From Malacoraja senta (taxonomy: Eukaryota): a DNA stretch of 64,000 nucleotides. The DNA is taken from the NCBI GenBank assembly GCA_038087875.1, contig CM075994.1:10046001-10110000 (forward strand), given 5' to 3'. Within the stretch, counting starts at the first letter, position 1, and each line of letters starts with the position of its first letter. Below, one piece after another: positions 4,850-58,126 of this stretch. The position numbers and the translations under genes are program-made. The notes below the pieces were generated by a model. It was not told the origin of the DNA, did no database searches, and saw nothing but the letters and a program-made list of their open reading frames with translations.

Positions 4850-4928
4850 ATTGGTTCATCTGTGCAAGCAGTCAGTCAATAGGAATCGGCGGTCGCTGAT
4901 CCTTCATTTGCATACCGCTGCCTATATC
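4850..4928 (+). promoter_or_regulatory. H2B-type promoter: inverted CCAAT, octamer, TATA
   Basis: attgg 4850-4854, ATTTGCAT 4906-4913, tatat 4923-4927. Confidence 0.8.
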
Positions 4929-5009: not shown

Positions 5010-5435
5010 ATGCCGACCGTCGTTGCCGCCGCAGCCGCCGCCGCCACCGGCGCCTCGGCGGCGAGCGCCAAAGGCGCCATCTCCAAGAAGGGCTCGAAGA
5101 AGACGGCCATGAAGATGAACCGCAAGGGCGACAAGAAGCACAGGAAGGCCAGGAAGGAGAGTTACAGCGCCTATATCTACAAGGTGCTGAAGCAGGTGCA
5201 CCCGGACACGGGCATCTCCTCCAAGGCCATGAGCGTCAGCAACTCCTTCGTCAACGACATCTTCGAGCGCATCGCCTCCGAGGCCTCCCGCTTGGTGCAC
5301 TACACCCGCCGCCAGACCATCTCCTCCCGGGAGATCCAGAGCGCCGTCCGCCTGCTGCTGCCCGGAGAACTGGCCAAACACGCCGTCTCGGAGGGGACGA
5401 AAGCGGTCACCAAATACACAAACTCCTCCAAGTAG
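5010..5435 (+). CDS. H2B: Histone H2B variant 1 (141 aa, Ala-rich N-tail), intronless
   Basis: ATG at 5010; [20 protein letters not shown]...[22 protein letters not shown] histone fold; promoter and stem-loop present. Confidence 0.93.
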
Positions 5436-5478
5436 ATCTTTTCTCCACCCATCAAAAGCTGCGACGAGACCGTCAAAC

Positions 5479-5494
5479 GGCTCTTTTAAGAGCC
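5479..5494 (+). terminator. Histone mRNA 3' stem-loop
   Basis: GGCTCTTTTAAGAGCC preceded by caaac and followed by ac. Confidence 0.92.
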
Positions 5495-5896
5495 ACTTAA
5501 ACCGTTTAGACTGGGCTATAATAGATTTGCACCCGTCAATCGAATTGGATACATGTGATACTTGGATACAAATGAAAACCAAAATATTTAATATTGCAAA
5601 ATGGTGGAGTCAAATTCAAATGGACTGAATTTAAATCGAAATTCAAATGGACTGAATTTAAATCGAAATTCAAAATCTGAATTTAAATGGACTATTAAAA
5701 TGAACCCTACCCAATAAAAAATATACTCAGATTTGGAATGATGTCTTGGTATTGCTTTAGTAACACTATTAAAATGAACCCTATCCAATAAAAATATACC
5801 CAGATATGTGGAATGTCTTGGTATCTTTGGTATTGCTTTAGTAGCATCATAATTTTAATAAAATAAAGAAATGTGGGCGGGACAGTGGCCTCACAA

Positions 5897-14636: not shown

Positions 14637-14775
14637 AGACGTCATAGAGATCATCTCCGCTCATTGGTTAAAAGCGGGCATGGTATCCTGCTTTCTGATT
14701 GGCCGTTGCCCCTGATTTTTGGGGTCCATCTCTAATCCCTCTATGCAAATGAGATGCCCGGTTTCCGTTATAAAT
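14637..14775 (+). promoter_or_regulatory. Orphan histone-like promoter cassette
   Basis: gacgtca, two attgg boxes, ATGCAAAT 14743-14750, TATAAAT 14769-14775; no histone ORF follows. Confidence 0.45.
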
Positions 14776-15351: not shown

Positions 15352-16245
15352 AATAAGAATAAATTTTGCAGGCAATTTTCTTCGTTACAAAGTCGTATCA
15401 GACCTTTGTTCTAATCAGTAATGCAAACAAATTTAAAACTAATTGTTGATAATTTAATAAATGAACGGATACCCGAATAAGAATTAATTTTGCAGGCAAT
15501 TTTATTCGTTACAAAGTCGTATCGGACCGTTGTTCTAATCAGTAATGCAAACAAGTTTAAACTAATTGTTGATAATTTGATAGTGTTTCATTAAAAATCA
15601 ACGGATACCTGAATAATTAATTTTGCAAGCAATTTTCTTCATTACAAAGTCGTATCAGACCTTTGTTCTAATCAATAATGCAAACAAATTTAAAACTCAA
15701 TTAATTGTTGATAATTTAATAGTGTTTCATTAAAAATCAACGGATAACTGAATAAGAATTAATTTTGCAGGCAATTTTCTTCTTTACAAAGTCGTATCAG
15801 ACCTTTGTTCTAATCAATAAAGCAAACAAATTTAAAACTCAATTAATTGTTGATAATTTGAGAGTGCTTTCATTAAAAAATCAACGGATACCTGAATAAT
15901 TAATTTTGCAAGCAATTTTCTTCATTACAAAGTCGTATCAGACATTTTGTTCTAATCAGTAATGCAAACAAGTTTAAAACTAATTGTTGATAATTTAACA
16001 GTTCTTCATTAAAAATCAAATTACAGAATAAGAATTAATTTTGCAGGCAATTTTCTTCGTTACAAAGTCGTATCAGACCTTTGTTCTGATCAGTAATGCA
16101 AACAAATTGTTGATGTTTTAACAGTGCTTCATTAAAAATCAACGGATACCTGAACAAGAATTAATTTTGCAGGCAATTTTCTTGTCACAAAGTTGTATCG
16201 GACCTTTGTTCTAATCAGTAATGCAAACAAGTTTAAAACTCAATT
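15352..16245. repeat. AT-rich tandem repeat, about 125-145 bp unit, 6-7 copies
   Basis: Recurring aattttgcaggcaattttcttcgttacaaagtcgtatcagacctttgttctaatcagtaatgcaaac. Confidence 0.92.
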
Positions 16246-16409
16246 ATCTTTTATTGCAAAGATCCACAAATTCTGAATTAATTCACTGTCTGGTACGTGT
16301 CTCGACACCGGTGCAGTTAGGTTTTCTGTTTCACTAGATCCTGCCATCGACTAACCAAGAGAAATAAGATGCAAGGGGTTGCCAGTCTTTGGTTATTGTG
16401 ATTGTGAAT

Positions 16410-16425
16410 GGCTCTGAAAAGAGCC
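16410..16425 (-). terminator. Histone mRNA 3' stem-loop
   Basis: Minus strand CCAAA-GGCTCTTTTCAGAGCC-ATTCA, canonical stem-loop. Confidence 0.93.
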
Positions 16426-16489
16426 TTTGGGTCGGAGAGGTGTGGAGAAGGAGGGGGAGAGGGGGAAAAAGCGCGGGAGTTTCGTGTTG

Positions 16490-16909
16490 CTATTTGCAGC
16501 TGGTGTATTTGCTGACCGCTTTGGTCCCCTCGGAGACGGCGTGCTTGGCCAGCTCCCCGGGCAGCAGGAGGCGCACGGCCGTCTGGATCTCCCGGGAGGA
16601 CATGGTCTTCCGCTTGCTGGTGCGGATCAGGTTGGCGGCCTCGGAGGCGATGCGCTCGAAGACGTCGTGCACGAAGGAGTTAATGACACTCATGGCCGAC
16701 GAGGCGATGCGCACGTTGGGGTGGACCTGCTTCAGCACCTTGTAGATGTAGATGCCGTAGTTGAGCTGGCCGCACTTGCGCCGCTGCCGCTGCTTCTGCT
16801 TCTGTTTCTTCTTCTTCTCGCCCGGCTTCAGCCGCTTCTTGACGGGGGCTTTCTTCGGCCTCCCAACCCCCCGGCGCGGCGCTCGGCCCTTGGTTGCCCG
16901 CTGCGGCAT
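16490..16909 (-). CDS. H2B: Histone H2B variant 2 (139 aa, Arg/Lys/Gln-rich N-tail), intronless
   Basis: [13 protein letters not shown]...[20 protein letters not shown]...[29 protein letters not shown] at 16909 lies downstream of the TATA-like box. Confidence 0.9.
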
Positions 16910-16957
16910 CGTCCGCGGCCGCCGCCGACTGTGCCTCGGGCGCGCCGGGCGACCCCC

Positions 16958-17070
16958 TTTCATAGGCGGCCGCATGCAAATGAGGGATCGCAGGGCGCCG
17001 CCATTCCCATTGGCTCTCGATGCGGCCATTCCGCCGCAGACGATTGGTGGCTCGTTGGCCTCATGCAAAT
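16958..17070 (-). promoter_or_regulatory. H2B-type promoter with two octamers and two CCAAT boxes
   Basis: TATGAAA 16958-16964; ATTTGCAT (minus) 16974-16981 and 17063-17070; CCAAT 17009-17013 and 17043-17047. Confidence 0.8.
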
Positions 17071-17114
17071 GAGAACCCGCTTCCACGTGGCCGTTGGTCC
17101 GAAGACCACTTCAT

Positions 17115-18650
17115 AGAGACAATAGACTATAGACAATAGACAATAGACAATAGACTATAGACTATAGACTATAGACTATAGACTATAGACTATAGACTAT
17201 AGACTATAGACTATAGACTATAGACTATAGACTATAGACTATAGACTATAGACTATAGACTACAGACTACAGACTATAGACTATAGACTATAGACTATAG
17301 ACTATAGACAATAGACTACAGACTACAGACTATAGACTATAGACTATAGACTATAGACTACAGACTACAGACTATAGACAATAGACTACAGACTATAGAC
17401 TATAGACTACAGACTACAGACTATAGACTATAGACTACAGACAATAGACTACAGACTATAGACTACAGACTATAGACTATAGACTATAGACTACAGACTA
17501 TAGACTATAGACTACAGACTATAGACTATAGACAGACTACAGACTACAGACTATTGACTACAGACTATAGACAATAGACTACAGACTATAGACTATAGAC
17601 TACAGCCAATAGGCTACAGACTATAGACAATAGACTACAGACTATAGACTACAGACTATAGACAATAGACTACAGACTATAGACTATAGACTACAGACAA
17701 TAGACTACAGACTATAGACTATAGACTATAGACTACAGACTATAGACTACAGACTATAGACTATAGACTACAGACTATAGACTACAGACTACAGACTATA
17801 GACTATAGACAGACTACAGACTACAGATTATAGACTACAGACTATAGACTACAGACTATAGACTATAGACCACAGACTACAGACTATAGACTATAGACTA
17901 TAGACAATAGACTACAGACTATAGACTACAGACTATAGACTATAGACTATAGACTATAGACAATAGACTACAGACTATAGACTATAGACAATAGACTACA
18001 GACTATAGACAATAGACTACAGACTATGGACTATAGACTATAGACTATAGACTATAGACTATAGACTATAGACTATAGACAATAGACTATAGACAATAGA
18101 CTATAGACAATAGACTATAGACTATAGACAATAGACTATAGACTATAGACTATAGACTACAGCATATAGACAATAGACTAGACTATAGACTACAGACTAT
18201 AGACAATAGACTACAGACTATAGACTATAGACTACCGACTATAGACTATAGACTACAGACTATAGACAATAGACTACAGACTATAGACTATAGACTACAG
18301 ACTATAGACTATAGACTATAGACTACAGACTATAGACTATAGACTATAGACTATAGACTATAGACAATAGACTATAGACAATAAACTATAGACAATAGAC
18401 TACAGACTATAGACAATAGACTACAGACTATAGACAATAGACAATAAACTATAGACAATAGACTATAGACAATAGACTGTAGACTATAGACAATAGACAA
18501 TAAAATATAGACTACAGACTATAGACTATAGACTTTAGACAATAGACTATAGACTATAGACAATAGACAATAAACTATAGACAATAGACTACAGATTATA
18601 GACTATAGACTATAAACAATAGACTATAGACTATAGACAATAGACTATGG
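17115..18650. repeat. Heptamer satellite (GACTATA/GACAATA/GACTACA)n, about 1.5 kb
   Basis: Direct inspection; runs into a reverse-complemented CR1-family 3' end (gacaataggtgcaggagtaggccatt). Confidence 0.97.
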
Positions 18651-18707
18651 ACAATAGGTGCAGGAGTAGGCCATTCCCTCTGGAAGGCGCCTCCTGATTG
18701 TCAAAAC

Positions 18708-33365: not shown

Positions 33366-33730
33366 ATGGCACTGCCCGCGCTCTACCTCTCCCCCCACCC
33401 GCACAGCGCCCACAACGCCGGGGTGCTGGTGGCCCTGGAGTACGGCGGGCAGAGGGCGAGGGTGGTGGACACGAGGAGGGGGGCGTCGGCGGGCGAGGTT
33501 GCCGCCGGTCCGACCGTCGCCGGGCTGCCGGCGGTGGAGGTGGAGTCGGGCGGGCACGTGTGGGGCGGCGCGGCGGTGGCTCACCTCCTGGCACCGGTGG
33601 CGATGAGGGGCCACGGCACTGAGGAGGCCGCCCTGGTGCGGCAGTGGATGAGCTACGCCGACATCGAGCTGCTGCCGATCGCTTGCGCCACCACCTTCCC
33701 GCTCTCGGCCTCTTGAAGCACAACAAGCAG
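33366..33730 (+). CDS. VARS1: Valyl-tRNA synthetase 1, first coding exon (GST-like N-terminal domain), apparent 1-bp deletion near 33698-33700
   Basis: LYLSPHP, LPAVE, VWGGAAVAHLL, AALVRQWMSYADIELLPIAC match the vertebrate VARS1 N-terminus; acceptor tttgcag ends at 33338; donor cag|gtagga at 33730/33731. Confidence 0.85.
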
Positions 33731-35505: not shown

Positions 35506-35705
35506 NNNNNNNNNNNNNNNNNNNNNNNNNNNNNNNNNNNNNNNNNNNNNNNNNNNNNNNNNNNNNNNNNNNNNNNNNNNNNNNNNNNNNNNNNNNNNNN
35601 NNNNNNNNNNNNNNNNNNNNNNNNNNNNNNNNNNNNNNNNNNNNNNNNNNNNNNNNNNNNNNNNNNNNNNNNNNNNNNNNNNNNNNNNNNNNNNNNNNNN
35701 NNNNN
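35506..35705. other. Assembly gap (200 N)
   Basis: Run of N. Confidence 1.
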
Positions 35706-40589: not shown

Positions 40590-42206
40590 CAGTGGCTTGC
40601 AAAAGTATTCATACCCCTTGAACTTTTCCACATTTTGTCACATTACAACCACAAACGTAAATGTATTTTATTGGGATTTTATGTGATAGACCAACACAAA
40701 GTGGTGCATAATTGTGAAGTGGAAGGAAAATGATACATGGTTTTCAATTTTTTTTACAAATAAAAAACTGAAAAGTGTGGCGTGCAAAAGTATTCAGCCC
40801 CCCTGAGTCAATACTTTGTAGAACCACCTTTCGCTGCAATTACAGCTGCAAGTCTTTTGGGGTAGGTCTCTACCAGCTTTGCACATCCAGAGACTGAAAT
40901 TTTTGCCCATTCTTCTTTGCAAAATAGCTCAAGCTCAGTCAGATTGGATAGAGAGCGTCTGTGAACCGCAATTTTCAAGTCTTGCCAGAGATTCTCAATT
41001 GGATTTAGGTCTGGACTTTGACTGGGCCATTCTAACACATGAATATGCTTTGATCTAAACCATTCCATTGTAGCTCTGGCTGTATGTTTAGGGTCGTTGT
41101 CCTGCTGGAAGGTGAACCTCCGCCCCCGTCTCAAGTCTTTTGCAGACTCTAACAGGTTTTCTTCCAAGATTGCCCTGTATTTGGCTCCATTCATCTTCCC
41201 ATCAACTCTGACCAGCTTCCCTGTCCCTGCTGAAGAAAAGCATCCCCACAGCATGATGCTGCCACCACCATGTTTCACAGTGGGGATGGTGTGTTCAGGG
41301 TGATGTGCAGTGTTAGTTTTCCGCCACACATAGCATTTTGCATTTAGGCCAAAAACTTCGATTTTGGTCTCATTTGACCAGAGCACCTTCCTCCACGTGT
41401 TTGCTGTGTCCCCCACATGGCTTGTGGCAAACTGCAAACGGGACTTCTTATGGCTTTTTTTCAACAATGGCTTTCTTCTTGTCACTCTTCCATAAAGGCC
41501 CAATTTGTGAAGTGCACGACTAATAGTTGTCCTGTGGACAGATTCTCCCACCTGAGCTGTGGATCTCTGCAGCTCCTCCAAAGTTACCATGGGCCTCTTG
41601 GCTGCTTCTCTGATCAATGCTCTCCTTGCCCGGCCTGTCAGTTTAGGTGGACGGCCATGTCTTGGTAGGTTTGCAGTTGTGCCATACTCTTTCCATTTTC
41701 GGATGATGGATTGAACAGTGCTCCGTGAGCTGTTCAAAGCTTGGGATATTTTTTTATAACCTAACCCTGCTTTAAACTTCTCCACAACTTTATCCCTGAC
41801 CTGTCTAGTGTGTTCCTTGGGCTTCATGATGCTGTTTGTTCACTAATGTTCTCTAACAAACATCTGAGGCCTTCACAGAACAGCTGTATTTATACTGAGA
41901 TTAGATTACACACAAGTGGACTCTATTTACTAATTAGGTGACTTCTGAAGGCAATTGGTTGCACTGGATTTTATTTAGGGGTATCAGAGTAAAGGGGGCT
42001 GAATACTTTTGCACGCCACACTTTTCAGTTTTTTATTTGTAAAAAAATTTGAAAACCATGTATCATTTTCCTTCCACTTCACAATTATGCGCCACTTTGT
42101 GTTGGTCTATCACATAAAATCCCAATAAAATACATCTACGTTTGTGGTTGTAACGTGACAAAATGTGGAAAAGTTCAAGGGGTATGAATACTTTTGCAAG
42201 CCACTG
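40590..42206 (-). mobile_element. Tc1 transposon copy A, 1617 bp, about 210-bp TIRs, TA TSD
   Basis: TA-cagtggcttgcaaaagtattc ... gaatacttttgcaagccactg-TA. Confidence 0.96.
40808..41827 (-). CDS. Tc1 DD34E transposase (339 aa), first catalytic Asp replaced by Asn
   Basis: GRPPK, WSNETK, QQDNDPKH, SPDLNPIE. Confidence 0.93.
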   Translation of the reverse strand: MKPKEHTRQVRDKVVEKFKAGLGYKKISQALNSSRSTVQSIIRKWKEYGTTANLPRHGRPPKLTGRARRALIREAAKRPMVTLEELQRSTAQVGESVHRTTISRALHKLGLYGRVTRRKPLLKKSHKKSRLQFATSHVGDTANTWRKVLWSNETKIEVFGLNAKCYVWRKTNTAHHPEHTIPTVKHGGGSIMLWGCFSSAGTGKLVRVDGKMNGAKYRAILEENLLESAKDLRRGRRFTFQQDNDPKHTARATMEWFRSKHIHVLEWPSQSPDLNPIENLWQDLKIAVHRRSLSNLTELELFCKEEWAKISVSGCAKLVETYPKRLAAVIAAKGGSTKY

Positions 42207-49866: not shown

Positions 49867-51483
49867 CAGTGGCTTGCAAAAGTATTCATACCCCTTGAAC
49901 TTTTCCACATTTTGTCACGTTACAACCACAAACGTAAATGTATTTTATTGGGATTTTATGTGATAGACCAACACAAAGTGGCGCATAATTGTGAAGTGGA
50001 AGGGAAATGATACATGGTTTTCAAATTTGTTTACAAATATAAAACTGAAAAGTGTCGCGTGCAAAAGTATTCAGCCCCCTTTACTCTGATACCCCTGAAT
50101 AAAATCCAGTGCAACCAATTGCCTTCAGAAGTCACCTAATTAGTAAATAGAGTCCACTTGTGTGTAATCTAATCTCAGTATAAATACATCTGTTCTGTGA
50201 AGGCCTCAGAGGTTTGTTAGAGAACATTAGTGAACAAACAGCATCATGAAGCCCAAGGAACACACCAGACAGGTCAGGGATAAAGTTGTGGAGAAGTTTA
50301 AAGCAGGGTTAGGTTATAAAAAAATATCCCAAGCTTTGAACATCTCACGGAGCACTGTTCAATCCATCATCCGAAAAAGGAAAGAGTATGGCACAACTGC
50401 AAACCTACCAAGATATGGCCGTCCACCTAAACTGACAGGCCGGGCAAGGAGAGCATTGATCAGAGAAACAGCCAAGAGGCCCATGGTAACTCTGGAGGAG
50501 CTGCAGAGATCCACAGCTCAGGTGGGAGAATCTGTACACAGGACAACTATTAGTCGTGCACTCCACAAATCGGGCCTTTATGGAAGAGTGGCAAGAAGAA
50601 AGCCATTGTTGAAAATAAGCCATAAGAAGTCCCGTTTGCAGTTTGCCACAAGCCATGTGGGGGACACAGCAAACATGTGGAGGAAGGTGCACTGGTCAGA
50701 TGAGACCAAAATTGAAGTTTTTGGCCTAAATGCAAAATGCTATGTGTGGCAGAAACCTAACACTGCACGTCACCCTGAACACACCATCCTCACTGTGAAA
50801 CATGGTGGTGGCAGCATCATGCTGTGGGGATGCTTTTCTTCAGCAGGGACAGGGAAGCTGGTCAGAGTTGATGGGAAGATGGATGGAGCCAAATACAGGG
50901 CAATCATTGACGAAAACCTGTTAGAGTCTGCAAAAGACTTGAGACTGGGGCAGAGGTTCACCTTCCAGCAGGACAACGACCCTAAACATATAGCCAGAGC
51001 TACAATGGAATGGTTTAGATCAAAGCATATTCATGTGTTAGAATGGCCCAGTCAAAGTCCAGACCTAAATCCAATTGTGAATCTCTGGCAAGACTTGAAA
51101 ATTGCTGTTCACAGACGCTCTCCATCCAATCTGCCTGAGCTTGAGCTATTTTGCAAAGAAGAATGGGCAAATATTTCAGTCTCTAGATGTGCAAAGCTGG
51201 TAGAGACATACCCCAAAAGACTTGCAGCTGTAATTGCAGCGAAATGTGGTTCTACAAAGTATTGACTCAGGGGGGTTGAATACTTTTGCACGCGACACTT
51301 TTCAGTTTTTTATTTGTAAAAAAATTTGAAAACCATGTATCATTTCCCTTCCACTTCACAATTATGCGCCACTTTGTGTTGGTCTATCACATAAAATCCC
51401 AATAAAATACATTTACGTTTGTGGTTGTAACGTGACAAAATGTGGAAGAGTTCAAGGGGTATGAATACTTTTGCAAGCCACTG
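49867..51483 (+). mobile_element. Tc1 transposon copy B, 1617 bp, TA TSD
   Basis: Same TIRs as copy A. Confidence 0.96.
50246..51265 (+). CDS. Tc1 transposase (339 aa), catalytic Glu replaced by Val
   Basis: WSDETK, QQDNDPKH, SPDLNPIV. Confidence 0.93.
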   Translation: MKPKEHTRQVRDKVVEKFKAGLGYKKISQALNISRSTVQSIIRKRKEYGTTANLPRYGRPPKLTGRARRALIRETAKRPMVTLEELQRSTAQVGESVHRTTISRALHKSGLYGRVARRKPLLKISHKKSRLQFATSHVGDTANMWRKVHWSDETKIEVFGLNAKCYVWQKPNTARHPEHTILTVKHGGGSIMLWGCFSSAGTGKLVRVDGKMDGAKYRAIIDENLLESAKDLRLGQRFTFQQDNDPKHIARATMEWFRSKHIHVLEWPSQSPDLNPIVNLWQDLKIAVHRRSPSNLPELELFCKEEWANISVSRCAKLVETYPKRLAAVIAAKCGSTKY

Positions 51484-52441: not shown

Positions 52442-54044
52442 CAGTGGCTTGCAAAAGTCTTCATACCCCTTGAACTTTTCCACATTTTGTCACGTTACAA
52501 CCACAAACGTGAATGTATATGTGATAGACCAACACAAAGTGGTGCATAATTGTGAAGTGGAAGGAAAATGATAATTGGTTCTCAAATTTTTTTACAAATA
52601 AAAAACTGAAAAGTGTGGCGTGCAAAAGTATTCAGCCCCCCTGAGTCAATACTTTGTAGAACCACCTTTCGCTGCAATTACAGCTGCAAGTCTTTTGGGG
52701 TATGCGTCTACCAGCTTTGCACATCTAGAGACTGAAATTTTTGCCCATTCTTCTTTGCAAAATAGCTCAAGCTCAGTCAGATTGGATGGAGAGCATCTGT
52801 GAACAGCAATTTTCAAGTCTTGCCAGAGATTCTCAATTGGATTTAGGTCTGGACTTTGACTGGGCCATTCTAACGCATGAATATGCTTTGATCTAAACCA
52901 TCCCATTGTAGCTTTGGCTGTATGTTTAGGGTCGTTATCCTGCTGGAAGGTGAACCTCCGCCCCAGTCTCAAGTCTTTTGAAGACTCTAACAGGTTTTCT
53001 TCCAAGATTGCCCTGTATTTGGCTCCATCCATCTTCCCATCAACTCTGACCAGCTTCCCTGTCCCTGCTGAAGAAAAGAATCCCCACAGCATGATGCTGC
53101 CACCACCATGTTTCACAGTGGGGATGGTGTGTTCAGGGTGATGTGCAGTGTTAGGTTTCCGCCACACATAGCATTTTGCATTTAGGCCAAAAACTTCCAT
53201 TTTGGTCACATCTGACCAGAGCACCTTCCTCCACATGTTTGTTGTGTCCCCCACATGGCTTGTGGCAAACTGCAAACGGGACTTCTTATGGCTTTTTTTC
53301 AACAATGGCTTTCTTCTTGCCACTCTTCCATGAAGGCCCGATTTGTGGAGTGCACGACTAATAGTTGTCCTGTGGACAGATTCTCCCACCTGAGCTGTGG
53401 ATCTCTGCAGCTCCTCCAGATTTACCATGGGCCCCTTGGCTGCTTCTCTGATCAATGGTCTCCTTGCCCGGCCTGTCAGTTTAGGTGGACGGCCATGTCT
53501 TGGTAGGTTTGCAGTTGTGCCATACTCTTTCCATTTTCGGATGATGGATTGAACAGTGCTCCGTGAGATGTTCAAAGCTTGGGATATTTGTTTATAACCT
53601 AACCCTGCTTTAAACTTCTCCACAACTTTATCCCTGACCTGTCTGGTGTGTTCCTTGGGCTTCATGATGCTGTTTGTTCACTAATGTTCTCTAACAAACC
53701 TCTGAGGCCTTCACAGAACAGCTGTATTTATACTGAGATTAGATTACACACAAGTGGACTCTATTTACTAATTAGGTGACTTTTGAAGGCAATTGATTGC
53801 ACTGGATTTTATTTAGGGGTATCAGAGTAAAGGGGGCTGAATACCTTTGCACGCGACACTTTTCAGTTTTTTATTTGTAAAAACATTTGAAAACCATGTA
53901 TCATTTTCCTTCCACTTCACAATTATGCGCCATTTTGTGTTGGTCTATCACATAAAATCCCAATAAAATATATTTACGTTTGTGGTTGTAACGTGACAAA
54001 ATGTGGAAAAGTTCAAGGGGTACGAATACTTTTGCAAGCCACTA
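52442..54044 (-). mobile_element. Tc1 transposon copy C, 1603 bp (14-bp deletion in one TIR, altered terminal base)
   Basis: Same TIRs; deletion near 52517; ends ccacta instead of ccactg. Confidence 0.95.
52646..53665 (-). CDS. Tc1 transposase (339 aa), DD34E triad intact
   Basis: WSDVTK, QQDNDPKH, SPDLNPIE. Confidence 0.93.
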   Translation of the reverse strand: MKPKEHTRQVRDKVVEKFKAGLGYKQISQALNISRSTVQSIIRKWKEYGTTANLPRHGRPPKLTGRARRPLIREAAKGPMVNLEELQRSTAQVGESVHRTTISRALHKSGLHGRVARRKPLLKKSHKKSRLQFATSHVGDTTNMWRKVLWSDVTKMEVFGLNAKCYVWRKPNTAHHPEHTIPTVKHGGGSIMLWGFFSSAGTGKLVRVDGKMDGAKYRAILEENLLESSKDLRLGRRFTFQQDNDPKHTAKATMGWFRSKHIHALEWPSQSPDLNPIENLWQDLKIAVHRCSPSNLTELELFCKEEWAKISVSRCAKLVDAYPKRLAAVIAAKGGSTKY

Positions 54045-56206: not shown

Positions 56207-58126
56207 TTAATCAACTTCTTCGATGGTTGGGCCGCCGGCTGCGTTCTTTCCCATCTGCCCGGCGAAGGAGCCCTCGGGCATGCCCCCATGGTAGAGCTTG
56301 CTGATAATCGGGTTGCAAATCTTCTCCAGGTCTTTCAGCTGCTGTTCGTATTCATCCTTCTCTGCCGTCTGGTTGGACTCCAGCCAGGATATGGTCTGGT
56401 TGCACTTCTCCACCACCTTGTTCTTGTCTTCATCGCCGACCTTGCCCCGCACCTTCTCGTCCTCCACCGAGCTCTTCATGTTGAACGCGCGGGACTCCAG
56501 GGAGTTCTTGGCCGCGATCCGCTCTCGTTGGCGCTCGTCTTGCCCTTTGTACTTTTCCGCCTCCTGCACCATCCTCTCGATCTCCTCCTTGCTCAGCCGG
56601 CCCTTGTCGTTGGTGATGGTGATCTTGCTCTCCTTGCCCGTGCTCTTGTCCACGGCGGACACGTTGAGGATGCCGTTGGCGTCGATGTCGAAGGTCACCT
56701 CGATCTGGGGCATTCCGCGCGGGGCAGGTGGGATGCCGCACAGATCGAACTTGCCCAGGAGGTTGTTGTCCTTGGTCATGGCCCTCTCGCCTTCGTACAC
56801 CTGGATGAGGACCCCGGGCTGGTTGTCAGAGTAGGTGGTGAAGATCTGGGTCTGCTTGGTGGGAATGGTGGTGTTCCTCTTGATGAGGGTGGTCATGACA
56901 CCGCCCGCCGTCTCCAGACCCAACGACAGTGGGGTGACATCCAGGAGGAGCAGATCCTGGACGTTCTCCGACTTGTCCCCCATCAGAATGGCCGCTTGGA
57001 CAGCCGCCCCGTAGGCCACCGCCTCGTCAGGGTTGATGCTCTTGTTCAGCTCCCTGCCGTTGAAGAAATCTTGCAGCAGCTTCTGGATCTTGGGGATGCG
57101 GGTGGAGCCGCCGACCAGGACAATGTCGTGAACTTTTGACTTATCCAACTTGGCATCTTTAAGAGCCTTCTCCACCGGCTCCAATGTGCCTCGGAATAAA
57201 TCGGTATTTAGCTCTTCCAATCGAGCCCTGGTGATTGAGGTGTAGAAGTCAATGCCCTCGAACAGAGAATCGATTTCCACACTGGCCTGGGTGCTGGAAG
57301 ACAGGGTTCTCTTTGCTCTCTCGCAGGCTGTCCGCAGCCTCCTCACCGCCCTCTTGTTCGGGCTAATGTCCTTCCTGAATTTCCGCTTGAACTCCTCAAT
57401 GAAGTGGTTGACCATGCGATTGTCAAAGTCCTCTCCACCCAGGTGGGTGTCGCCGGCTGTGGACTTCACTTCAAAGATACCGTCGTCGATGGTGAGGATG
57501 GACACGTCGAAGGTGCCGCCACCCAGGTCAAAGATGAGGACATTGCGCTCTCCACTGCCCTTCTTGTCCAGGCCGTAGGCAATGGCACCTGCAGTTGGTT
57601 CGTTGATGATGCGCAGGACATTGAGACCAGCGATCACGCCGGCATCTTTGGTTGCCTGCCGCTGGGAGTCATTGAAGTAAGCGGGCACGGTGATAACGGC
57701 GTTGGTGACATTGTAGCCCAGGTAAGCCTCGGCCACCTCCTTCATCTTGGTCAGCACCATGGAGGAGATCTCCTCCGGGTAGAAGGTTTTATTCTCCCCC
57801 TTGTACTCTACCTTCACCTTGGGCTTCCCAGCGTCGCTCACCACCTGGAAGGGCCAGTGCTTCATGTCGGACTGGACCACGGGGTCGTCGAACCTCCTCC
57901 CGATGAGCCTCTTGGCGTCGAAGACGGTGTTGGACGGGTTCATGGCCACCTGGTTCTTGGCCGCGTCGCCGATGAGCCTCTCGGTGTCGTTGAAGGCCAC
58001 GTAGCTGGGGGTGGTGCGGTTGCCCTGGTCGTTGGCGATGATCTCCACCTTGCCATGCTGGAAGACGCCGACGCAGGAGTAGGTGGTGCCCAGGTCGATG
58101 CCAATGGCTGTTCCCTTGGCTGCCAT
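56207..58126 (-). CDS. HSP70: Cytosolic HSP70 (HSPA1/HSPA2-like), intronless, 639 aa
   Basis: [22 protein letters not shown] and [14 protein letters not shown] signatures; ends GPTIEEVD. Confidence 0.98.

Follow-up and report, generated by a model that had tools for sequence, protein, structure and literature searches.

Almost all H2B variants described from vertebrates are mammalian; the single older class is H2B.K (PMC8857922). The five widespread mammalian variants are all germline-expressed and fast-evolving, and oocyte-biased variants, H2B.K and H2B.N, exist (PMC8857922). In the available portion of that study, Raman et al. 2022, the elephant shark is used only to date H2B.K. Sea urchin sperm H2Bs accompany stable, closed chromatin (PMC9903204). 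In the residue numbering of a canonical H2B, which we follow here, Y83 stacks on H4 Y88 in the H2B-H4 bundle (PMC6212774; also bioRxiv 2024.12.31.630874), G53 adjoins the DNA entry/exit site (PMC7060176), and L2 is the second DNA-binding loop (PMC8857922).

Here we describe an H2B gene, variant B, in a window of 64,000 nucleotides (the whole stretch of Malacoraja senta DNA that was analysed), together with a second H2B gene, variant A. By its sequence, variant B belongs to an old lineage of H2B variants in cartilaginous fishes, and among the skate copies of that lineage it has diverged furthest.

The variant B gene and its window

Variant B is encoded by one uninterrupted frame of 420 bases (Table 1), and its assignment to H2B follows from the Pfam match, from PDB H2B matches and from the C-terminal helix of the predicted structure. 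The first-pass annotation of this DNA, which was made from the letters alone, had called the frame intact, its stem-loop canonical and its octamers two in number, and each of these calls was borne out by the translation, by the Rfam match and by the promoter sequence; the protein stretches that it quoted (the tail, PNVRIASSA and a further stretch of ten residues) and both cysteines, at residues 46 and 138, likewise agree with the translation. A longer frame of 179 aa, starting from an in-frame ATG at 17029, was rejected: this ATG precedes the proximal octamer, and in the named orthologs the protein starts at the 16909 methionine. A pseudogene reading was also rejected, and variant B is very probably a real protein-coding gene.

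Table 1 Features of the window and their coordinates
Feature	Position	Strand	Evidence and remarks
H2B variant B coding sequence (P0001), 139 aa, intronless	16490..16909	minus	ORF without stops; Pfam Histone E 8e-23; lineage label C1
Histone 3′ stem-loop, variant B	16410..16425	minus	Pattern match; Rfam RF00032 (Histone3) 16386-16430, 34.6 bits (cut-off 34), E 1.6e-6
Candidate histone downstream element (U7-pairing site), variant B	16383..16390	minus	+20 after stem-loop; overlaps AGACTGG 16382-16388
Proximal octamer, variant B	16974..16981	minus	-72 from ATG
Distal octamer, variant B	17063..17070	minus	-161 from ATG
CCAAT boxes, variant B promoter	-138 and -104 from ATG		
CpG island across variant B gene and promoter	16351..17150	no strand	Coding CpG o/e 0.95 vs 0.55 window; GC3 0.93
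H2B variant A (P0002), 141 aa, alanine-rich tail	5010..5435	plus	Sister lineage C2; clade support 97/93
3′ stem-loop region, variant A	5474..5519	plus	Rfam RF00032 31.8 bits (below cut-off 34), E 1.6e-5; contains AGACTGG 5508-5514
Octamer (one), variant A	4906-4913		
VARS1 (valine-tRNA ligase) first coding exon, MHC class III marker	33366..33730	plus	83% to Leucoraja VARS1 P0275
HSP70 gene, intronless	56207..58126	minus	Beyond assembly gap 35506-35705

With no intron, a 3′ stem-loop and an octamer promoter, variant B has the design of a replication-coupled-type histone gene, but it lacks the near-canonical protein of such genes: its core departs from that of shark canonical H2B at 24 of 90 positions and matches it at 66. 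The window as a whole holds four octamers against about 3.4 expected (0.005 per given 200-base strand), and three of the four stand upstream of its two H2B genes. The candidate downstream element is plausible, fitting a nine-letter vertebrate consensus at eight of eight letters with one letter dropped. The heptamer AGACTGG, which the first-pass annotation noted downstream of both stem-loops and read as a possible U7-binding element, does occur at both places; however, we rejected it as a conserved U7 site, since its registers (+22 and +13) lie 9 bases apart and some shared 7-mer between two 35-base stretches arises by chance in 3-5% of cases (3.2% of shuffles, 4.6% of random pairs). The same heptamer occurs 13 times in the window. 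Repeats lie close to variant B on both sides: at 15454-16239 a tandem array with 5.8 copies of a 142-bp unit, and at 17117-18657 a satellite with 221 copies of a 7-bp unit.

Variant A shares 87-88% identity with Pristiophorus and Heterodontus proteins; its tail extension is alanine-rich, and relative to shark canonical H2B it carries the unusual buried changes M62S and I39A. A further histone-like promoter stands alone at 14640-14760, where an extended octamer (14750-14743, minus) has a context like that of variant B's two octamers, with CCAAT boxes and a CRE-like site nearby and no histone ORF after it; this is possibly the remnant of a lost gene. The window contains only two histone stem-loops, a search with an H3 query found no H3 in it, and none of its ORFs of at least 90 aa resembles H2A, H4 or H1. 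On the HSP70 side lie three near-intact transposase frames of 339 aa (40808-41827, 50246-51265 and 52646-53665), presumably of Tc1 type, which suggest recent transposon activity.

A cartilaginous-fish H2B clade and its MHC class III site

We searched 5.8 billion proteins for homologs of variant B, complementing this with cluster look-ups and a profile search. Among the best 120 of 7,861 matches, a Leucoraja erinacea ortholog with 95% identity came first, followed by other chondrichthyan proteins. ESM Atlas returned generic H2B clusters only. Because no close Amblyraja ortholog stood among these best 120 of 7,861 matches, the copy may have been lost, or left unassembled, in some skates. The Leucoraja ortholog is intact and constrained and the family spans cartilaginous fishes, so that the first-pass proposal of a variant gene stands on this point, and phylogeny places variant B within a supported chondrichthyan H2B variant clade.

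We distinguished three chondrichthyan lineages, labelled C1, C2 and C3, all of which carry ordinary H2B-like names in RefSeq. The named species with C1 number 18, of which 13 are sharks, 4 are batoids and one is Callorhinchus. The lineage is marked by a residue other than lysine at position 57, I/V81, S/T84 and, mostly, a terminal Cys-Lys; of 44 proteins listed, one was passed over, and the remaining 43 show these marks in 42, 43, 43 and 36 cases, respectively. Variant B carries this signature. Among 260 other domains fetched, the pair S57 and I81 recurs in 4, of which three trace to chondrichthyan records and none bears a non-chondrichthyan name, although this pool consists of matches to our own queries and is no survey of all vertebrates. 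The literature searched on cartilaginous-fish H2B variants, a scope outside which most subscription journals fall, contained no description of C1-C3. Older protein work on dogfish testis histones may already have encountered these proteins. The genes themselves are already annotated in RefSeq and in the supplement of PMC10751288, but not as variants.

For the tree we aligned 60 rows of 273 proteins over 90 core columns, leaving out tandem fusions and most environmental matches, redundant bird and mammal entries and scattered lamniform copies; H2B.K sequences were absent. All 39 chondrichthyan variant rows fell into a single clade (98/91) that excludes both mammalian H2B.1 and the canonical H2B of sharks. 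Variant B paired with the Leucoraja ortholog (100/97) and then with a Rhinoraja protein (93/90, to be read with caution as two long branches are involved), inside a batoid subclade with sawfish (95/84; enclosing set 97/83), while C1 as a whole, including Callorhinchus, reached support of 81/74 only. On this short alignment, AU tests rejected neither a grouping of variant B with mammalian H2B.1 (p 0.079) nor one with an urchin sperm-like protein (p 0.084). We are nonetheless confident that variant B is a member of the chondrichthyan variant lineage.

Several family members are unusual in their own right. The nearest paralog, P0040 of Rhinoraja longicauda, carries Y83C; its tail is rich in proline and glutamine, and an inserted QHQY repeat precedes helix 1. 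Three Callorhinchus milii proteins on one 64.6-kb contig (P0082, P0083 and P0124) carry S78Y and R79Y beside the H4 interface and have glycine/serine-rich tails of varying length. Among the C1 proteins P0059 and P0128-P0152, the Carcharodon copies occupy 7 contigs and the Cetorhinus copies 9; several of them carry stray substitutions, and together they represent a burst of dispersed copies in lamniforms.

Measured against the sawfish C1 protein, variant B has 15 changes in the 90 core positions, whereas each of the six sharks compared has 1-2 (p 0.001); the conserved shark members can serve as a slow control. The other skate copies have 9-13 changes, so the C1 lineage radiated in skates. Between variant B and its Leucoraja ortholog, by contrast, the core differs at only 1 of 90 positions, significantly fewer than the tail (6 of 49, p 0.008) and than VARS1 exon 1 in the same species pair (13 of 106, p 0.002). 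The simplest reading of this protein-level comparison is a burst of change followed by constraint.

Variant B starts 16.5 kb from VARS1 exon 1, the two being arranged head to head. This exon was recognised by the homolog search and not by the Pfam and PDB sequence searches. Its frame shifts by one base near 33700 when compared with Leucoraja VARS1, and the next 30 kb of the window, which include the 200-N gap, yielded no further VARS1 exon; assembly error, a mis-join or a dead duplicate are alternative explanations. The Leucoraja VARS1 record is marked 'low quality', and the Amblyraja record is a split piece of 249 aa. In Leucoraja, VARS1 and the variant B ortholog each lie on a contig of 131,166 bases, presumably the same one.

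The gene called smx5 on the sawfish MHC chromosome we take to be LSM2. The order given there by Verissimo et al. 2023 (PMC10751288, supplement) is three HSP70 genes, smx5, H2B, H1, H4, 'H2B 8-like' (381 bp), H3, H2A, H2B, H1 and VARS1, followed by H4, H2B, two H2A and two H1; the sawfish C1 protein P0132 agrees with 'H2B 8-like' in name and size. In the same supplement, white shark and catshark have runs of unnamed short genes at the VARS1 site, of which those of white shark fit the sawfish order in size and strand, and the reedfish sheet has no histone gene beside VARS1. The word 'histone' is absent from the main text of PMC10751288. C1 and C3 occur on equal-sized contigs in 11 of the 13 species with sizes for both, the exceptions being Leucoraja and Amblyraja; in Amblyraja two C1 copies lie on a different contig from the VARS1 piece. 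Canonical H2Bs of Heptranchias (15 of 29 listed) are on other contigs. The sawfish VARS1-side cluster (NC_067438.1, 4.24-4.47 Mb) also holds H1, H2A, H3 and H4 genes, and a CENP-A-like gene lies at 1.59 Mb on the same chromosome (PMC10751288 supplement). The sequence observations of the first-pass annotation hold, but it did not bring out what we consider most important, namely the family to which the gene belongs and the location of that family in MHC class III.

Core changes, proposed role and rival readings

Variant B carries the core changes Y83T, R79N, G53R and D51N and a lysine at position 87, in L2, whereas E76, L80, K120 and the C-terminal helix are kept. R79N adjoins Y83T, and GQLN takes the place of the basic patch that immediately precedes helix 1. 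Y83 is retained in 40 of 43 scored C1 members, the exceptions being variant B and its two nearest skate relatives, and in 243 of 277 in-register fetched domains, where the other exceptions are mostly environmental proteins. The first-pass annotation had proposed an altered H4 contact and located it in PNVRIASSA; Y83 is indeed lost at the H4 interface, but PNVRIASSA is the DNA-side loop. An AlphaFold model (mean pLDDT 70.5) has helices at 52-62, 70-98, 105-115 and 118-137 and a disordered tail, and superposes on nucleosomal H2B with an rmsd of about 1.6-1.7 A over 90 residues, so the H2B fold is kept.

The net charge of the protein is +29, against +18 in canonical H2B. Its tail, described earlier as very basic, is longer (49 residues vs 34-36), richer in arginine (9 vs 3) and higher in net charge (+21 vs +12) than canonical tails, but the density of basic residues is not raised (0.45 vs 0.42-0.44). 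As for the two cysteines, the C-terminal one (C124 in canonical numbering) is a family trait of C1, whereas the tail cysteine is a glycine in the Leucoraja ortholog, which has a cysteine elsewhere in its tail; we therefore rejected it as a conserved trait.

We tentatively favour the view, at somewhat less than even confidence, that variant B is a transitional histone of the male germline in which the grip on H4 is weakened and DNA is held by a longer basic tail. Variant B would be transcribed through its octamers, with U7-type 3′ processing, and would be expressed in germ cells. It would assemble with H2A, given that E76, L80, K120 and the C-terminal helix are kept, and its partners might be the H2A, H3, H4 and H1 of the same cluster. 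Together, Y83T and R79N would weaken the hold of the H2A-H2B dimer on H4 and ease dimer loss, and the positive charge added at both DNA-facing loops (D51N, G53R and K87) and in the tail would keep DNA bound. Chromatin loosened in this way would be readied for replacement by protamines, which elasmobranch sperm carry. Of the parts of this proposal, germline expression is probable, the male germline in particular is an evenly balanced call, and the mechanism of dimer loosening with charge-based DNA holding is plausible but held with more reserve.

In favour of a germline role, the five widespread mammalian variants are all expressed there, and an urchin protein annotated as sperm-like H2B.2 (P0090) likewise lacks Y83 and has K87, with a net charge of +28. 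The scatter of lamniform C1 copies is also what retroposition from germline RNA would give, an argument made for germline expression in PMC8857922. Against germline specificity, octamer and stem-loop are also the design of ordinary S-phase H2B genes. Among 24 sequencing runs listed, the 20 that were RNA or guessed RNA shared 0.04-0.06 of the gene's words, with no RNA run above 0.06, and four unlabelled runs shared 0.21-0.69; the RNA negative is weak because stem-loop mRNAs can be missed in poly(A) libraries.

The urchin resemblance also bears on the mechanism, since the urchin sperm H2Bs, to which P0090 is similar, go with stable, closed chromatin, so that losing Y83 does not have to loosen nucleosomes in vivo. 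The changes in variant B might also be offset by its partner histones from the cluster. Variant B might then act as sea urchin and hydrozoan sperm H2Bs do, which stabilise chromatin and block transcription (PMC9903204), silencing male germ-cell chromatin through its long basic tail with the core changes being minor. The tails are indeed closely matched (49 residues and net +21 in variant B, 52 and +21 in the urchin protein), in addition to the shared Y83 loss and K87. However, the variant B tail has no SPKK-type motif and a single Ser/Thr (none in Leucoraja), so the phosphorylation switch of the SPKK family is missing. Sea urchins and hydrozoans, moreover, are not known to have the protamines that elasmobranchs have, and we consider this reading unlikely, though it retains some weight.

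Scattered C1 copies are compatible with either germline, and variant B could instead be maternal, or serve the early embryo, as one of a set of variant histones with which the large, yolky egg is provisioned. Both H2B.K and H2B.N show an oocyte bias and carry their changes close to L2 (PMC8857922), and the nearest paralog, P0040, shares a glutamine-rich tail with H2B.K. H2B.K, however, has lower charge, an intron and mostly poly(A) signals (PMC8857922), whereas variant B is intronless, carries a stem-loop and is far more highly charged, which leaves the maternal reading unlikely.

The location beside VARS1 and HSP70 and the highly cationic tail could also fit a minor isoform of somatic cells, such as those of the blood or the immune system, or a protein that yields cationic antimicrobial peptides, maintained in the stress and immune neighbourhood of MHC class III. 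Histone-derived antimicrobial peptides are known in fishes. Yet constraint acts on the fold and not on the tail, the whole histone set clustered at the sawfish site points to use in chromatin, and linkage alone is silent on function; such a somatic or antimicrobial role is distinctly improbable. That variant B is a redundant duplicate drifting under relaxed selection is very unlikely: skate copies differ from the sawfish protein at 9-15 of 90 positions, no transcript was found among the RNA runs listed and the best 120 of 7,861 matches held no close Amblyraja ortholog, but the core is near-identical to that of Leucoraja while the tail and VARS1 exon 1 have diverged, and the stem-loop, both octamers, the CpG island and the high GC3 are all kept. 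A non-nucleosomal role as a structural basic sperm protein, like that of the subacrosomal mammalian H2B.L, which also alters H4-contact and L2 residues (PMC8857922), is scarcely credible, as the C-terminal helix and K120 are kept and identity to shark canonical H2B across the core is far above the under 50% of H2B.L (PMC8857922).

Returning to the transitional germline histone, a wider proposal is possible but on balance doubtful: that cartilaginous fishes have a dedicated, ancient variant-histone cluster at VARS1 in MHC class III, with three H2B lineages and its own H1, H2A, H3 and H4, which would build a germline-specific nucleosome, with a fast H2B radiation in skates and with variant B giving a nucleosome that lacks the Y83-H4 aromatic lock and converges on sea urchin sperm H2B.

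With a clade of three H2B lineages spread over sharks, rays and a chimaera, innovation in histone variants would reach back to the oldest jawed vertebrates and would be located in the ancestral MHC; RefSeq mislabels the members of this clade as ordinary H2B. Variant B offers a natural, conserved test of the Y83-H4 contact and of G53 loop function. Elasmobranch testes are zoned by stage, and if variant B is a germline histone, the histone-to-protamine step would be directly testable in them.

Comparison with known systems

The closest known protein is the Leucoraja erinacea ortholog XP_055486376.1 (P0005), which has the same Y83T, G53R, R79N and K87 and differs by K46R and in the position of its tail cysteine; its name, 'late histone H2B.L4-like', is an automatic annotation and misleadingly canonical. 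Mammalian H2B.1 (TSH2B/TH2B), for which germline expression is a feature, resembles variant B in being intronless with a stem-loop and in having I41 and S75, and its structure 3x1t is the best single-domain PDB sequence match. The tail cysteine of H2B.1 is in register with C46 of variant B, a match that is likely a coincidence since C46 is not kept in Leucoraja. H2B.1 is of eutherian origin and has lost none of the residues that contact H2A, H4 or DNA (PMC8857922), unlike variant B with Y83T, R79N and G53R, and it falls outside the chondrichthyan clade in the best tree, although the AU test leaves a union of the two standing.

Sea urchin and hydrozoan sperm H2Bs share with variant B a long basic tail and a net charge of about +28, and the one urchin sperm-like protein fetched agrees with it at positions 83 and 87. 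That protein contains two SP(K/R)(K/R) motifs, as defined in PMC9903204, compared with none in the variant B tail, on which ground we rejected membership of the SPKK sperm H2B family; in the tree sperm H2B is another lineage, subject to the same AU reservation. H2B.K (H2BK1) of bony vertebrates is, like C1, an old variant and has its changes clustered at L2, but by its published description it bears an intron, has lower charge and a polyglutamine tail, and mostly uses poly(A) signals (PMC8857922). Variant B has a continuous ORF, a stem-loop, a net charge of +29 and no polyglutamine run, and membership of H2B.K was rejected accordingly. Finally, the oncohistone changes E76K and G53D hit the same two surfaces as variant B, the H2B-H4 bundle (PMC6212774) and the DNA entry/exit loop (PMC7060176). 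In variant B, by contrast, E76 is kept, G53 is replaced by arginine, of opposite charge to the aspartate of G53D, and the changes are fixed and conserved rather than somatic.
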